Virus genome (UHGV): UHGV-0171787
Length of the DNA stretch: 64,000 nucleotides
Strand: one strand, 5' to 3'
Origin: a virus
The position numbers and the translations under genes are program-made. The notes below the pieces were generated by a model, which saw nothing but the letters and a program-made list of their open reading frames with translations, had not been told where the DNA came from and did not search any database. Position 1 is the first letter of the stretch; every line of letters begins with the position of its first letter. Positions 3,680-59,580 of this stretch are shown here, piece by piece.

Positions 3680-5923
3680 ATGGCTAAGCAAAAATATAGT
3701 GAAGAGGTGTTGGACGAGTTACGTGTTGACCTTCAACGTCGTTTTAATTATGCTCAAGGCTACGTAGACACAGCTGTTAAGGGCTATGCTCGTGAAGCTT
3801 GGGAATATTTCTATGGTAACTTACCTGCACCAGTAACTGCTGGCAGCTCTAGTTGGGTAGATCGTACTGTTTGGGAATCTGTTAACGGTACATTGCAAGA
3901 TATTATTAACGTATTCTGTTCTGGTGACGAAGCGGTTACTTTCGTAGCTGACAACCAACAGGATTCTGATGCTGCTGATGTAGCAACTAAACTAGTTAAC
4001 CAAATTCTTCTGCGTGATAATCCGGGATATAATATTATCTCTTCTGCTGCACAAGAATGTCTGGTTACTCGTAACTCTTTTATCAAATATTATTGGGATG
4101 AGCAAACTTCTACTCAAACTGAAGAGGCTGAAGGTGTACCACCGGAAGCATTGGCTGCATATGTTCAGGGATTAGAAGCTGGTGGACTCAAGAATCTGGA
4201 AATCTTCACTGAAGAAAATGAAGATGGTACAGTAGATGTTAAAGTTACTTACGAACAAACTGTTAAACGTGTGAAAGTTGAATATGTTCCTTCAGAGCAA
4301 ATCTTTGTTGATGAACATGCTACCTCTTTTGCAGATGCACAATACTTCTGTCATCGTGTACGTCGTTCTAAAGAAGATCTGGTTGCTATGGGCTTCCCTA
4401 AAGATGAGATTGAAGCATTCAACGACTGGACAGATACGATGGATACCACTCAATCTACAGTTGCTTGGTCTCGTACTGACTGGCGTCAGGATATTGATGC
4501 TGATATTGGCACAGATACCGAAGATATTGCTTCTATGGTTTGGGTTTATGAGCACTACATTCGTACAGGTGTTCTAGATAAGAATAAAGAGTCTAAACTC
4601 TATCAGGTTATTCAAGCTGGTGAGCATATCCTTCACACTGAAGAAGTAACTCACATTCCGTTTGTAACCTTCTGCCCATATCCTATTCCGGGTTCCTTCT
4701 ATGGTCAATCGGTCTATGACATTACGAAAGATATTCAAGATTTACGTACCGCGTTAGTTCGTGGTTATATCGATAACGTCAACAATGCTAACTATGGTCG
4801 ATACAAAGCTCTTGTTGGTGCATATGATCGTCGCTCTCTGCTTGATAACCGTCCCGGTGGAGTGGTTGAAATGGAACGTCAGGACGCTATTGACCTGTTC
4901 CCATACCATAACCTACCTCAAGGTATTGATGGCCTCCTAGGTATGTCTGAGGAGCTTAAAGAGACACGTACAGGTGTAACCAAACTAGGTATGGGTATCA
5001 ACCCTGATGTGTTTAAGAATGATAACGCTTATGCAACCGTAGGCTTGATGATGAATGCTGCACAGAACCGTCTCCGTATGGTATGTCGTAACATTGCTCA
5101 CAATGGTATGGTTGAATTGATGCGTGGTATTTACAGCCTTATCAGAGAAAATGGTGAAGTTCCTATCGAGGTACAAACCCCTCGTGGTATGGTTCAGGTT
5201 AATCCGAAACAATTACCAGCTCGTCACAATCTTCAAGTTGTTGTAGCTATCTCCCCTAATGAGAAAGCAGAACGTGCACAGAAACTGATTAGCTTGAAAC
5301 AGCTGATTGCAGCAGATGCACAGTTAGCACCTCTCTTTGGTTTGGAGCAAGACCGTTACATGACTGCACAGATCTTTGAGTTGATGGGTATTAAAGATAC
5401 ACATAAATACCTTCTGCCTCTGGAACAATATCAGCCTCCAGAACCTTCTCCGATGGAAATCCTCCAGCTCGAGATGACTAAAGCACAGGTTGAGAACGTA
5501 CAGGCTTCTTCTCAGAAGATGATTGCTGATGCATTCGACCAACGTGAACGTACTACATTCGAACAGCAGAAAGCTGCGGATGAATTAAGTCTGCGTCAGG
5601 AAGAGTTGCAGTTCAAGCAAGAAAATGCAGCAGATGCAATGACTCTGGAAAACCGTAAAGAAGATAACAATGCTACTCTGGAACAAGCTAAGCACAAGTT
5701 AGCTCTTATGCAACAGCAGGTCCGTCAGTATGAATCTGTACTAAAAGAGTTGCAGATGGTTATGTCTCATCAGGTTGACCAAGAGAAGCTTAATGAACAA
5801 TCACGCATTCAAAACAAGACTTTGGAACTCCAAAAGAAAGAAGCTAATGTAACTAAGAAAGAGCAACAAACTTCTCTCAAAGATTCACGGATTCAAGGCA
5901 AACGTCTTGGAAGTAAAAAGTAA
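3680..5923 (+). CDS. Portal protein with C-terminal coiled-coil/charged tail
   Basis: 747 aa directly downstream of terL; C-terminal 200 aa Gln/Glu/Lys-rich; assignment by size and synteny. Confidence 0.7.
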   Translation: MAKQKYSEEVLDELRVDLQRRFNYAQGYVDTAVKGYAREAWEYFYGNLPAPVTAGSSSWVDRTVWESVNGTLQDIINVFCSGDEAVTFVADNQQDSDAADVATKLVNQILLRDNPGYNIISSAAQECLVTRNSFIKYYWDEQTSTQTEEAEGVPPEALAAYVQGLEAGGLKNLEIFTEENEDGTVDVKVTYEQTVKRVKVEYVPSEQIFVDEHATSFADAQYFCHRVRRSKEDLVAMGFPKDEIEAFNDWTDTMDTTQSTVAWSRTDWRQDIDADIGTDTEDIASMVWVYEHYIRTGVLDKNKESKLYQVIQAGEHILHTEEVTHIPFVTFCPYPIPGSFYGQSVYDITKDIQDLRTALVRGYIDNVNNANYGRYKALVGAYDRRSLLDNRPGGVVEMERQDAIDLFPYHNLPQGIDGLLGMSEELKETRTGVTKLGMGINPDVFKNDNAYATVGLMMNAAQNRLRMVCRNIAHNGMVELMRGIYSLIRENGEVPIEVQTPRGMVQVNPKQLPARHNLQVVVAISPNEKAERAQKLISLKQLIAADAQLAPLFGLEQDRYMTAQIFELMGIKDTHKYLLPLEQYQPPEPSPMEILQLEMTKAQVENVQASSQKMIADAFDQRERTTFEQQKAADELSLRQEELQFKQENAADAMTLENRKEDNNATLEQAKHKLALMQQQVRQYESVLKELQMVMSHQVDQEKLNEQSRIQNKTLELQKKEANVTKKEQQTSLKDSRIQGKRLGSKK

Positions 5924-24290: not shown

Positions 24291-27200
24291 ATGGCTAACA
24301 TTAAACCGTGGGAAGAAGCTTCCAAAGCTCCTGCGTATCTGAATGCCTCTCCGGAGCAACAAGCTCAAATGAGAGAACAATATAAGGCAGCAGGTGGCTC
24401 TATTCCTGAGGAACAACCAGTAGCACAACCACAACAAGAAGAACGTGGTGCTATAGGTGAGTTTGCTCAAGGTGTGTCAAATGCTCTTCAGTCCGGCAGT
24501 GCTAACATCTCTGCTAATCTTGCTAGGGGTATTGGAGGCTTAGTTGAGATTGGTGAAGATCTAACTGGAGCACAAACCGGTTACGGGAAGCGTATGCAAG
24601 AGAACGCTCAAAATCTCTTGAAAGAACGTATGGATAAGATTGAGGATGGGATTGGTAAATCTGCTGGTCAGTATGCTGGGGTGGTTGCCGACATTGGTCT
24701 GACAGTTGCTAACCCATTAGTTGCCGCTGCTATCATCGCAGGTCGTGAGACAGGTCGTGCATATGCAGACCAAACCCCTGAAGAGGGGGAAGATAAGTCT
24801 GTTCTAGATGCAGCCCTAGTTGGTGGTGCTAACTATGCAGCTCAAAGAATCCTTCCGGGTGCTGTTGGGACAGCTGAATCAGCTCTTGGTCGTATCGGTC
24901 AGAACGTTGCTAGTAACGCAGTGGCTGGTGCTAAAGGTGGTGCTCTTGTTGGTGCTGCTGAGGTTCAGAACAAGTATGGTGATGACAATGATCTAGCTAA
25001 GACATTGGAAGGTGTTATCGAAGAAGGTGCTATGGGTGCTGCATTCGGTGGTGCAGTTGGTGGGGTTCATGGTTTGATTAGCCGTCCGGATTCTGCTGTC
25101 TTCAGGAATACTCCAGAGTATGCGAAGACTGATATTGCTGCTGATGACGAACTGATTCGTAGTGCTAAGAATGTTGATGAATTGAAAGAGGCTTACTCTA
25201 AAGCTGAAACTGCTAACGCTGCTTCTGCTCTGAACCTTCTCGATGAGAATGGATTCCGTATTACAGATGCTGTTGCTGTAGATTCTCCTGCTGCTCAGCG
25301 TATTCTTAATACTGACCAAGCTCGTGCTGAGAAAGCTGCTTCCGTTCAGAAAGAGCATTCCAACATTCCGGGCCTTAATCCTTTAGCTTCTCCTGCTAAG
25401 ACTCGTGGTAAAGCATTCGCTGATAATGAGCACAACCAGAAGCAGGCTGTTGCTATGAAGGATGCAATGGCTGACTACACCAAAGACAACACGAAAGCTC
25501 TTACAGATGTTCTGGATAACCTAGATCGTGAATTAACTTCTCTCCGAGCTTCTGGTGATTTTACTGGTAGTCCGATTGATATTAAGAACCGTACACAAGC
25601 CGACCGTGATTTCATTGATGCTTACAAGACTTTCTACAATGAAGCAAATCGATTCAAAGCTCGTGATGGTGAAGACTTTAATAACTTTGTAGAGAAAGCT
25701 GCTGAACTACAGAAGATGGCTGATAATGTTTCTCCAGAGATGAAGAAAGCTATTGGTGGGTTGAAGAAACTGAAAGGTATGCCTGAAGGTTTTAATCCTA
25801 TCCAAGATGCTTACACTCTGAACAATACAGCTAAGTTCATGAGCAATCAAGATCGTGGTTGGACTTCCCTGACTGATGATGGCTTCCGTGAGGCTTCTTC
25901 ACCTAGTCTGGTAATGAACACTCTTGGTGCTGCTAAGTATGCTCTGAATCGCTTCTCTTCTCAGCGTGCTCGTTCTCAGCGTGTTAAGCAACAAGAGTCT
26001 AACAGCGAAGCTATCCGCTCTCTGGCTCGTGGTGATTTGGAAGTTGCTCGTGCTAAATCTACTGCTGATGAAGCTCGCGCTAAGATGGAAGAAGAACCAG
26101 TTGTTGATGACATTAAATTTAAGATGCAAAATGATGTAGAAACCGAACCGGTTCGGGAGCCTTCTTCTAGTACTGTGACGGAAGAAAATCTTCCTTCTTC
26201 TGTTCCTCAAGAAGCCCCTCTTACGGCTCGTGATTTAGTTGCTCAAAGACGTGCAGTTAAGCAGGTGGAACAGCGTCGTGCGCAAGAAGAGGCCGCACAG
26301 GCTCCAGAATCGACCGTAGAGGAACCAACCATCAAAGCTGAGCCATTACCTGCCCGTGCCCCTAAAGCTCCTAAGGAAGCTGTACAGGATGTTAAACCAT
26401 CAATTGGTGTAGAACGTTTAGCTGCCATGTCCAGTGCTGCTCGTCAAGCTACTAAAGATCGTGCAGAACGTTTTGCTCGTTCTCTGTACTCTAAGGCTGC
26501 TAAGGCTAAAGCAACTGCTGAGAACTTCTTATCTTACAAGGGTGATCCTAAGGAGTTGATGCGTCGTATTCGTCAGGAAGATAATGCTATCAACACTGAA
26601 CGTCATGAAGAAATGGCTCGTAACCAGCTGGCTTCTCAGCAAGGCATTGCTACTGCTAAGAACAACACGGTACGAACTAATTTTGCTGAATGGGTTAAGG
26701 AACGTGGTCTTCCAGAAGACATTGCTACTAAGGCATTACGTGCTGAAGAGAAAGGTTTAGGTGGGAACGTAACTAACTTGGATAGCCTGAAACGTCGTGC
26801 AGAAAGGTTATATCAGAAGCAGCGTGAGGATGAGTTTGATAGGCTGTATCAACAAGCTCTTGAAGAGAACAAAGCTTTCGATAATAAGAATGCTCCTAAG
26901 CTGGTTGACCAGAAGAAAGAGCTTCAGTCTGAGATTGATGCTTTAATTGATTCAGAACCTTTACGTCCTGCTCAGAAAGATGCTATGCGTAAGCTGATGA
27001 ATGACTTTGTAGATGGGAAGTTTAAATCTTCAGAGAAGGCTGGTAGGGAAGAGGCTTTGGAAGTTGGTCAGATGAAGGATATTTGGGATGGGTTTATCAA
27101 CACCTATAACAGAGAAGTGAATGCCTTCAACAGAGCTAATAAGAACTCTCAGTATGAAGCTTTTGCTAAACACATACAGGCTCGTGAAGAACGTCTTGCT

Positions 27201-58432: not shown

Positions 58433-58948
58433 CTATTTAGTTAACCAAAAACCTTTCGGCTTTTTAACAACACCAAGAATCCTACATCTCTTATGGACAG
58501 CCGAATCACTAACACTCAGTAACCTCCCTACTACGTACACGGGGTAAATGTCTATTAAAGACTGAAGAGATTCTTTTGTTATTTCAAACCGTCTGCTATC
58601 TAATTTGGCACAAAGCTGTGAGCAAAACCTTTGGTTGCTATTCTCTGAAACAAGGTAAATCTCTCCACAAAAAGAACATAATCTTTCTTCCATAACAGCC
58701 CCATGATGATGCCTGCTATGCTCCTCATAAGTCATGATTTCTAAATTAGATGGTTCGTTGTTTAACTTATTCTCATCCTTGTGATGAACCACTAGGTCAG
58801 AGTTCAGTTCGACACCGTAGAAATTTTGAGCAACATACCTATGAACATACACCTTTCCAGCTTTATTGGCCATAGGGTGTGTTGGTTGGTACACATACAA
58901 ATAACCAACACCTTTATCAACAACTGCTTTACTTAGATCTAGCTTCAT
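58433..58948 (-). CDS. HNH homing endonuclease
   Basis: 171 aa; VHHKDENKLNNEPSNLEIMTYEEHSRHHH HNH motif plus C-terminal CxxC pair. Confidence 0.65.
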   Translation of the reverse strand: MKLDLSKAVVDKGVGYLYVYQPTHPMANKAGKVYVHRYVAQNFYGVELNSDLVVHHKDENKLNNEPSNLEIMTYEEHSRHHHGAVMEERLCSFCGEIYLVSENSNQRFCSQLCAKLDSRRFEITKESLQSLIDIYPVYVVGRLLSVSDSAVHKRCRILGVVKKPKGFWLTK

Positions 58949-58968
58949 AATACCTCAAGAACTCTTAG

Positions 58969-59047
58969 CGAGGGTGACAGGACTCGAACCTGCATACTCC
59001 ATTTACTTCTTTAACGACCACTTAGAAGGCGGGGAAGATACACCCTC
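58969..59047 (-). tRNA. tRNA-like element (canonical T-arm and 7-bp acceptor stem; interior does not fold as a standard cloverleaf by eye)
   Basis: Minus-strand GAGGGTG...GCAGG-TTCGAGT-CCTGT-CACCCTC: perfect 7-bp acceptor pairing and GGTTCGAGTCC T-arm; a possible anticodon arm with UCU; no convincing D-arm found. Confidence 0.35.
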
Positions 59048-59068
59048 ACTAAGAGCTCTCGTTAATCC

Positions 59069-59320
59069 TCAAGCACAAGCAGGGAGTGTGATGATCTTAT
59101 ACTTACCTTCAAACTCTCCAAACAAACCCAAGAATGTAGGACTGTAGGTTCCAGTACAAACAAACTCATCAAACAATTCGTTATAGCTAGGCTTAATCTT
59201 CCAAGCCCATACATAACCCATCCTATCAATCGCAATGTAACGAGTGTTCAGAGGAACAGTCATCATCACACCATCAACTTCAATCACTTTAGTTATTGGT
59301 GCAGCTTGAAAGTTTTTCAT
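59069..59320 (-). CDS. Hypothetical protein
   Basis: ORF track, 83 aa; start overlaps the stop of an upstream small ORF (ATGA). Confidence 0.45.
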   Translation of the reverse strand: MKNFQAAPITKVIEVDGVMMTVPLNTRYIAIDRMGYVWAWKIKPSYNELFDEFVCTGTYSPTFLGLFGEFEGKYKIITLPACA

Positions 59321-59540: not shown

Positions 59541-59580
59541 AACAACAAAGGCCACCCGATTGGGCAGCCTTTTTATTTGT
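59541..59580 (-). terminator. Rho-independent terminator, GGCCACCCGATTGGG family (bidirectional-looking)
   Basis: aacaacaaaggccacccgattgggcagcctttttatttgt; hairpin flanked by A-rich and T-rich runs. Confidence 0.5.

Follow-up and report, generated by a model that had tools for sequence, protein, structure and literature searches.

In the tRNA cloverleaf, positions 8-9 are followed in order by the D 5' strand, the D loop, the D 3' strand, position 26, the anticodon arm, the variable loop and the T arm. A 2020 review of non-canonical tRNAs lists loss of the D arm for mitochondria only and makes no mention of phages (PMC7609411). An automated survey of structured viral RNAs includes an IMG/VR motif, DNAVirus_2961, that "only sometimes" overlaps ARAGORN tRNA-Arg calls, and it offers no structural interpretation beyond "tRNA or tRNA-like" (PMC10690425). 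Here we describe an element at 58969..59047 on the minus strand of the viral genome UHGV-0171787, of which a stretch of 64,000 nucleotides (nt), referred to as the window, was analysed. The window derives from a Kuravirus, a phiEco32-like Escherichia coli podophage of the Gordonclarkvirinae. Sequence comparison indicates that the element is probably a working, non-canonical tRNA-Arg(UCU) gene whose class, restricted to phages, has a rewired core. A published description of this architecture did not turn up in full-text searches, which also used exact sequence strings and did not cover most subscription journals.

Architecture of the element

Read on the minus strand from 59047 to 59034, the element begins with the acceptor 5' strand GAGGGTG (59041..59047), a connector TAT (U8, A9 and U10; 59038..59040) and the 5' strand of a nested "D-like" helix, CTTC (59034..59037), which continues directly into the anticodon stem. 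The anticodon arm CCCGC/CUUCUAA/GTGGT (59017..59033) is followed by a 7-nt bulge, CGTTAAA (59010..59016), which on the 3' side separates the anticodon stem from the nested helix, and by the 3' strand of that helix, GAAG (59006..59009). A 12-nt linker, UAAAUGGAGUAU (58994..59005; TAAATGGAGTAT in the continuous read), stands directly 5' of the T-arm GCAGG/TTCGAGT/CCTGT (58977..58993), after which come the acceptor 3' strand CACCCTC (58970..58976) and a discriminator G. The whole gene thus has 78 nt plus the discriminator, and CCA is not encoded. It lies in a gap between an 83-amino-acid open reading frame (ORF) at 59069-59320 and an HNH_3 ORF at 58433-58948, both on the minus strand; a plus-strand ORF that overlaps it (58974-59147) was dismissed as a mechanical artefact.

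The perfect 7-bp acceptor stem and the textbook T-arm pointed out in a preliminary description of this locus are both present in the sequence. The T-arm includes one G-U pair and was aligned to the T-arm of the Rfam tRNA model with high posterior probability. The same description could fit no standard D-arm, and indeed the sequence does not permit a D hairpin: the anticodon hairpin begins only 7 nt past the acceptor stem, which leaves too little space. The sole anticodon-like hairpin, correctly described as displaced, carries UCU (59024-59026; element positions 22-24) and lies 12 nt closer to the 5' end than in a standard tRNA. Its stem pairs are C.U, C-G, C-G, G.U and C-G, and its loop (C32 U33 UCU A37 A38) is canonical.

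Compared with the cloverleaf, the order of strands is changed. Here, positions 8-9-10 are followed by a 3-4 nt strand joined to the anticodon stem, the anticodon arm, the 7-nt bulge, the complementary strand, UAAnUGGAGUAU and the T arm. Because the partner strand is placed after the anticodon stem and the bulge, the "D-stem" encloses the anticodon arm. In effect, the 12 nt normally found ahead of the anticodon arm (D 5' strand and D loop with G18-G19-A20) have moved behind it, which matches the 12-nt displacement of the anticodon exactly. The D-loop-like UAAnUGGAGUAU lies between the nested helix and the T-arm and abuts the latter.

From this order, a tertiary structure can be proposed. The nested helix would stack on the anticodon stem (5 + 4 pairs, with a possible U10.U43), giving a stack of approximately 10 layers, like that of a normal anticodon stem with pair 26-44 and the D stem. 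The bulge, a proposed analogue of the variable loop, would leave the stack where the variable loop normally does. The linker appears to be the analogue of the D loop, its GGA corresponding to G18-G19-A20, and its GG might dock on the canonical T-loop to form the elbow.

A conserved family in phages

The tested structure was specified by hand on an alignment (A1) of 65 distinct sequences and comprised the acceptor stem (columns 1-7/72-78), the nested helix (11-14/39-42), the anticodon stem (15-19/27-31) and the T stem (55-59/67-71). Standard pairs formed in 94.4% of the cells of this structure, compensatory double changes occurred in 19 of the 21 pairs, and none of 500 shuffles reached any of the observed measures. 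When the partners were slid by 1-3 columns, pairing fell to 33-45%. All seven acceptor pairs covaried in the family (99.3% of cells paired), as did all five pairs of the anticodon stem, and the T stem was paired in 98.8% of cells, with double changes in four of its five pairs. The worry voiced in the preliminary description, that the element had been mis-folded by eye, was unfounded: the drawing is correct, and 65 distinct homologues share the layout with compensatory changes in every helix.

Specifically, pairs 11-42, 12-41 and 13-40 of the nested helix showed no mismatch in 195 cells. Pair 11-42 was C-G in 65 of 65 sequences, 12-41 occurred as four pair types (U-A 40, G-C 14, A-U 10 and C-G 1) and 13-40 as three (C-G 54, G-C 6 and U-A 5). 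The helix is 3-4 bp long in the family, where it encloses the anticodon arm, and its strands include CTT/AAG, CTC/GAG, CGC/GCG, CAC/GTG, CGG/CCG, CAG/CTG, CAT/ATG and CCC/GGG; the window copy has CTTC/GAAG. Pair 14-39 (A.C 38, C.A 12, C-G 5, A-U 5 and U.G 2) behaves like a non-Watson-Crick closing pair and was the only one to emerge from a mutual-information search for tertiary or pseudoknot pairs. RNAalifold recovered the three standard helices and missed the nested one of 3 bp. Within the linker, a mini-hairpin of two pairs (43-53 and 44-52) was possible in the main subfamily; it was not conserved in the others and was dropped.

Outside the helices, columns 8-10 of A1, the connector, are invariant in the family, and this 5' side lay outside most of the search patterns used. 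The linker is conserved in the family, and the bulge keeps C-R-T-T-A-A-N in the main subfamily. Shorter bulges occur in other subfamilies, which were found by scanning for the D-loop-like motif abutting the T-arm at other spacings. Conservation is stronger in the interior than in the stem, and it is highest of all in the anticodon loop.

A covariance model (R1) was built from 63 sequences, with the window copy and its closest relative (Bas94, L003) left out. R1 matched the window copy over its full length (positions 1-79) with 92.6 bits (E~1e-25), a score within the range of family members (85-100 bits). Other canonical tRNAs in 565 kb of phage DNA reached at most 29 bits, and the canonical tRNA-Arg of Kuraviruses scored 17.9 bits. 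It is nearly certain that the window copy belongs to a conserved, phage-restricted, arginine-specific class of D-hairpin-less tRNAs.

Standard tools do not recover this class. ARAGORN found no tRNA and no tmRNA in the whole 64-kb window, and at the element region no call was obtained in intron and tmRNA modes or in three mitochondrial modes (-mt, -mtmam and -mtx). A call made at the element with a lowered threshold (-ps90) was rejected as a 93-nt artefact in which flanking sequence was misused as the acceptor stem; the same mis-fold explains the 90-96 nt "tRNA-Arg" calls at four family loci (L056, L142, L172 and L176). The Rfam tRNA model RF00005 scored the window copy at 28.1 bits, with only the acceptor and T arms aligned, against a gathering score of 29; other family members scored 29.7-38.6 bits and canonical neighbours 45-70 bits. 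An Rfam search at E<=10 gave only this sub-threshold match and noise, with no YrlA, tmRNA or other tRNA-like family (clan CL00001). Of the features of a canonical cloverleaf, the window copy has the acceptor stem and discriminator, the T-arm, and an anticodon arm with U33 and purine 37; it lacks the D hairpin (10-13/22-25), an above-threshold Rfam score and detection by ARAGORN. It does not conform to the mitochondrial D-armless type either, matching no mitochondrial mode and having its long connector on the 3' side. The preliminary description had counted silence from every search mode among its grounds for giving the element up. ARAGORN was silent, yet the family comparison establishes the element as real, and to discard it on that ground would have been wrong because ARAGORN is blind to this design.

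The silence of ARAGORN and the sub-threshold Rfam score would also suit a decaying pseudogene of the canonical tRNA-Arg(UCU) of sister phages, or a chance resemblance, as would the mismatch in the anticodon stem and the position of the locus in a rearrangement hot spot with HNH insertions. Such an origin has next to no probability and is refuted in practice by the comparative data. The 79-nt layout recurs in unrelated phages, in at least 65 distinct sequences, and each of the four helices shows compensatory changes; there is no sequence similarity to the canonical Kuravirus tRNA-Arg (the 17.9 bits given above), and the C.U at 15-31 is common to 14 family members. Moreover, a true decayed copy looks different: on the metagenome-assembled genome (MAG) contig CALFYC010000064.1 (L156), a main-subfamily copy at 1458-1540, apparently a pseudogene, has lost its T-arm and acceptor 3' strand and scores 49.8 bits. 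An intact short-bulge variant (2103-2179; 65.6 bits) is found approximately 600 nt from it. The option of a degenerate tRNA, raised in the preliminary description, is therefore rejected for a family that is conserved, covarying and phage-wide.

Based on BLAST and pattern scans, the same 78-79-nt layout was found in phi92-like, Felix O1-like, Asteriusvirus jumbo, Klebsiella, Proteus, Vibrio, Streptomyces and Stenotrophomonas phages. The main-subfamily patterns matched 84-86 IMG/VR contigs, and more than 200 GenBank phages have a match. In Salmonella phage Felix O1 (AF320576.1), a copy identical to the L080 query lies at 25951-26032 under a feature annotated "unknown", and 121 Felixounavirus records carry a copy, nearly all of them unannotated. 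Throughout public records, the element is mostly unannotated or is labelled "tRNA-OTHER", "tRNA-Undet", "tRNA-TERM", "tRNA-Leu", "unknown" or "hypothetical protein". Among 185,579 bacterial and archaeal species genomes (one each), there were five matches, all on MAG contigs, and no match was found in 5,426 complete E. coli genomes.

At the locus itself, sister Kuraviruses have one tRNA gene, a canonical tRNA-Arg(TCT), of which two versions with unrelated sequences occur (O18-011, L001:2172-2247; IMEP8, L002:1155-1231). Seven Kuravirus-like records (Bas94, Bas93, 1-6af, 1-6bf, FH3, TH42 and HC-25922) carry homologues of the element with 84-88% identity. In Escherichia virus TH42 (L202, MT446413.1), the element and its flanking stem are followed, within 1514-1650, by the last ~33 nt of an O18-011-type canonical gene, namely its T-arm, acceptor 3' strand and CCA. 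This arrangement is the footprint of a cassette replacement of the canonical gene, caught in the act.

Arginine anticodons and a probable decoding role

When the anticodon was left free, main-subfamily copies comprised 94 TCT, 2 CCT and 1 TCG. Across all subfamilies, 88 unique sequences carried TCT (67), ACG (13), CCT (4), TCG (2), CCG (1) and GAT (1), so that 87 of the 88 class members have arginine anticodons. The five arginine anticodons belong to two codon boxes and are nearly the only ones present, which ties the scaffold to the identity of arginine and not to a single codon or a single target of a nuclease. On a 170-kb IMG/VR contig (L169), two scaffold copies lie approximately 220 nt apart (3788-3865 and 4087-4164), one with TCG and the other with TCT.

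A20 is the main identity element for arginyl-tRNA synthetase (ArgRS). In the loci studied, GGA was present in the D-loop region of 37 of 40 canonical phage tRNA-Arg genes, compared with 137 of 878 other tRNAs, and UGGA is kept by all scaffold members, though it was demanded by the search patterns. Additional tRNA hallmarks are the canonical T-loop, U33 and A37, a G or A discriminator in 89 of 92 copies, and an encoded CCA in 62 of 92.

The codon usage of the host phage is compatible with a need for such a tRNA. In the ORFs of the window, AGA makes up 8.3 and AGG 4.5 of every 1000 codons. In E. coli, AGA is used at ~2 and AGG at ~1 per 1000 codons, and the phage values are several-fold (about four times) higher. 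In phage tRNA clusters of 15-26 genes, the element is present and a canonical Arg-TCT is absent, even beside canonical Arg-ACG, TCG, CCT or GCG genes; phi92-like clusters contain no other Arg tRNA.

Other notable RNA genes were also seen in these loci. In phi92-like phages (L004/L005, 1243-1329 and 2133-2208), the "hypothetical tRNA" PHI92_t002 was called tRNA-Met(CAT) by ARAGORN, and an annotated tRNA-Lys(TTT) was given a 2-base anticodon ("tRNA-???"), suggesting that this cluster holds further irregular tRNAs. A tmRNA (tag ANSMNASAFALAA) was called by ARAGORN at 6424-6703 of L035, a 64-kb viral contig that also carries a non-canonical tRNA-Arg. A 231-kb viral contig with another copy (L047) has a tRNA with a CTA anticodon at 2109-2182, called "tRNA-Pyl" by ARAGORN and resembling an amber suppressor.

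A pathway for a decoding tRNA can be outlined from these features. The gene would be transcribed within a minus-strand operon, RNase P and a 3' nuclease would trim the ends, and the host CCA-adding enzyme would complete the molecule. The A after the linker GG may act as A20 and, together with C35, U36 and G73, let the host ArgRS charge the RNA. The resulting tRNA-Arg(UCU) would read AGA and probably AGG, and could meet the raised demand of the phage for decoding these codons.

The alternative suggested in the preliminary description, a tRNA-like structure with another role, survives as a minority rival. According to this alternative, the RNA is made and does not decode; it could be a decoy or inhibitor of a tRNA-Arg-directed nuclease or defence, a sponge or regulator of ArgRS or a modifying enzyme, or a Y-RNA-like scaffold, and the Arg-type anticodon loop and GGA would be bait rather than working parts. 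Phage tRNAs do interact with tRNA-targeting defences, the core is unlike any elongator tRNA known on bacterial ribosomes, and the CCA-less members with a long terminal stem recall Y RNA/YrlA modules. In addition, one contig (L166) keeps a canonical Arg-TCT beside its non-canonical copy. Against these points, a decoy for a single nuclease is not expected to carry five arginine anticodons, to fill exactly the missing UCU slot of near-complete phage tRNA sets or to stand at a locus in place of a canonical tRNA-Arg(UCU). Furthermore, CCA is encoded in two thirds of the copies, the discriminator is of the Arg type, and no Rfam family but tRNA matches. We therefore regard a mimic as unlikely. The "genuine tRNA" of the preliminary description is the best-supported option, although not as a hidden standard cloverleaf, the core being truly non-canonical.

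Stalk, endonuclease gene and known systems

The acceptor stem of the window copy is extended by 14 bp. The 5' leader strand CGAGAGCTCTTAGT (59048..59061, minus strand) pairs with the trailer strand GCTAAGAGTTCTTG (58956..58969, minus strand) as inverted repeat I1; the trailer begins at the discriminator and ends at the GAGG ribosome-binding site of the HNH gene. Acceptor and stalk form one continuous 21-bp helix, and the fold with flanks has -46.2 kcal/mol (z = -5.6). Compensatory changes in the stalk were found in Bas93, 1-6af and TH42, and in Salmonella phage SSBI34 the trailer also ends at the GAGG ribosome-binding site of the next gene. Extensions of at least 12 bp were present in 12 of 27 CCA-less family contexts (13 with L003, which is mismatched) and in none of 49 CCA-encoding contexts; none of 362 canonical tRNAs in the same loci had one of at least 8 bp. 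The stalk sequences are unrelated across lineages.

It can be speculated, by analogy with rRNA processing stalks, that the stalk aids processing or folding so that a tRNA without CCA can be cut out of a polycistronic mRNA; the 14-bp leader-trailer helix would then serve as a processing stalk or folding clamp. An intrinsic terminator was ruled out as a reading of the long stem, which has no consistent T-run after it. A terminator-like hairpin with 11 pairs and a T-rich tail is located at 59547-59572 (minus strand), upstream of the block of small ORFs in which the tRNA lies. Neither directly upstream of the tRNA nor between it and this hairpin was a sigma-70-like promoter found.

The same long hairpin might instead act in cis, with the tRNA-like head as a relic, for example as a site of mRNA processing or stability, as a translational control of the downstream gene, or as an HNH homing or recognition site. 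The 21-bp helix ending at the HNH ribosome-binding site, the covariation of the stem among Kuraviruses and the HNH-tRNA linkage kept in three unrelated phages would all be in line with this, and most of the extended copies stand alone between ORFs (a tRNA lies within 300 nt of 3 of 10, compared with 32 of 47 CCA-encoding copies). However, 49 of 76 distinct family contexts have neither extension nor HNH gene and lie in tRNA clusters with encoded CCA. Moreover, a relic predicts that the stem should be better conserved than the interior, the opposite of what was observed. A cis role of the stalk is in any case compatible with a tRNA and does not replace it, and a primarily cis-acting hairpin appears improbable. 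A similarly small share of probability, if anything slightly smaller, is left to explanations outside those named here.

The endonuclease gene that the preliminary description placed directly downstream is at 58433..58948 (minus strand), starting 20 nt past the tRNA; it encodes 171 amino acids of the HNH_3 family (Pfam PF13392, 47.2 bits against a gathering score of 24.8, E=1.6e-12), and its partnership with the element recurs in two unrelated Salmonella phages. This HNH protein has no close relative in Kuraviruses, and its identity to the HNH proteins that Bas93 and O18-011 encode at this locus is only ~30%. The best matches (52-54% identity) were from SSBI34 (Vequintavirinae) and the 337-349-kb Salmonella phages 7t3, PHA46 and SE_PL. 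In SSBI34 and 7t3, the HNH gene begins 15-25 nt downstream of a family member (R1 scores of 100.7 and 92.3 bits), and by coordinates PHA46 has the same arrangement (element 326645-326726, HNH 326745-327257). A more distant homologue in Stenotrophomonas phage SOVA965 lies between a tRNA-Met and an unannotated short-bulge class member (L328, PP079418.1, 1223-1297; anticodon TCT, CCA encoded), which comes directly after the HNH gene, itself preceded by four tRNA genes. In Erwinia phage Hallingskeid, a distant homologue follows a tRNA-Gly. Because HNH homologues in unrelated phages adjoin class members or tRNA genes, the tRNA and the HNH gene appear to act as a travelling module.

Several observations weigh against a working tRNA-Arg(UCU). 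The window copy is under the Rfam gathering threshold, its anticodon stem is weak (a C.U mismatch, a G.U and three C-G pairs), its CCA is not encoded, and the complete pairing of its 5' leader with the trailer might be an obstacle to RNase P. The search patterns account in part for the conservation of TGGA, GTAA and CDTTAA. One member, on the minus strand of an IMG/VR contig locus (L266), has the loop CTGATAT with anticodon GAT (Ile), the only non-arginine anticodon of the class, which could be an anticodon switch or a different identity. Finally, L166 carries a canonical Arg-TCT 8 nt downstream of the trailer stem of the element; holding both genes, it implies that the canonical and non-canonical Arg-TCT are not strictly interchangeable.

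Taken together, the data allow a wider reading, which we put forward tentatively and rate at somewhat below an even chance. The element would be a phage-evolved, lineage-crossing, strand-swapped tRNA-Arg without a D hairpin, charged by the host ArgRS through the relocated, A20-like GGA, evading defence and moving as a cassette. Its restriction to virulent phages suggests that the rewired core escapes a host activity directed against tRNAs with a canonical core, for example the nucleases of tRNA-directed defence or the tRNA decay that infection induces. If this wider reading is true, these RNAs would be the first class of armless-type tRNAs to work outside organelles, on bacterial ribosomes, a second architecture for one specific elongator tRNA would have spread from coliphages to Streptomyces phages, and the stalk with the linked HNH gene would constitute a mobile tRNA cassette.

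Should the RNA prove to be charged and used, an elongator tRNA of the bacterial type can do without the cloverleaf, and natural, sequence-diverse and testable rewired tRNAs are at hand in well-known laboratory phages (Felix O1 and phi92). They would confront ArgRS recognition, RNase P, EF-Tu and the ribosome with a new natural substrate to explain and would provide a ready-made scaffold for tRNA engineering. In addition, phage tRNA inventories and codon-usage analyses would systematically miss a decoder of AGA/AGG (and CGN), because ARAGORN skips the element and annotators label it as nothing or wrongly. The phage restriction also raises the question of why selection should favour a non-canonical core, one candidate being escape from host immunity that targets tRNAs.

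Elsewhere in the window, a group I intron (44095-44305, minus strand; Rfam RF00028, 86.3 bits, E=1.4e-20) splits the DNA primase/helicase gene into ORFs at 44293-45543 and 43500-44045. Most related Kuraviruses align here in two pieces that skip ~250 nt and hence lack the intron, and VTCCBPA_211 covers the region.

Among known systems, the locus can be compared with the homing endonucleases T4 SegB and T5 F-TflI, II and IV, which are encoded in phage tRNA gene regions. As in those cases, a free-standing endonuclease gene lies beside tRNA genes, the locus is variable, and a replacement has left a tRNA remnant (TH42). Unlike them, the protein here belongs to the HNH_3 family, and its three closest relatives are all linked specifically to a non-canonical tRNA-Arg. 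Bacterial Y RNA (YrlA) also has a tRNA-like head on a long stem of its 5' and 3' ends, and some of these RNAs are phage-encoded. YrlA lacks a conserved anticodon arm, whereas most members of the present family have no long stem but a CCA, and their anticodon loop is the most conserved part.

Canonical tRNA-Arg(UCU), as in E. coli argU, the phage T4 tRNA-Arg and Kuraviruses O18-011 and IMEP8, shares with the element a 7-bp acceptor stem, a 5-bp T stem with a TTCRANY loop, a 5-bp anticodon stem with the loop C-U-UCU-A-A, a G or A discriminator, an often encoded CCA and a UGGA motif resembling G18-G19-A20. It also occupies the same genomic slot in Kuraviruses and phage tRNA clusters. The element differs in that the D hairpin is absent, the junction is three-way instead of four-way, the equivalent of D-stem strand 22-25 precedes the anticodon stem, and the equivalent of 10-13 and the D-loop-like segment come after it. 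Like DNAVirus_2961, the family overlaps ARAGORN calls only in part, four of its loci being called as the 90-96 nt mis-folds, and the motif may be the same RNA.

The D-arm-less mitochondrial tRNAs, such as mammalian tRNA-Ser(AGY), Ascaris tRNA-Ser(UCU) and the "armless" tRNAs of nematodes and mites (PMC7609411), are likewise elongator tRNAs with no D hairpin and a three-helix architecture, in which the spacing of anticodon and CCA end is maintained by connectors and a lengthened anticodon helix. Their replacement loop is 5' of the anticodon stem, and their T-arm and elbow contacts are usually reduced. Here, by contrast, the 5' connector has 3 nt, the long 3' connector keeps GG and faces a canonical T-arm, and the setting is a phage rather than an organelle.

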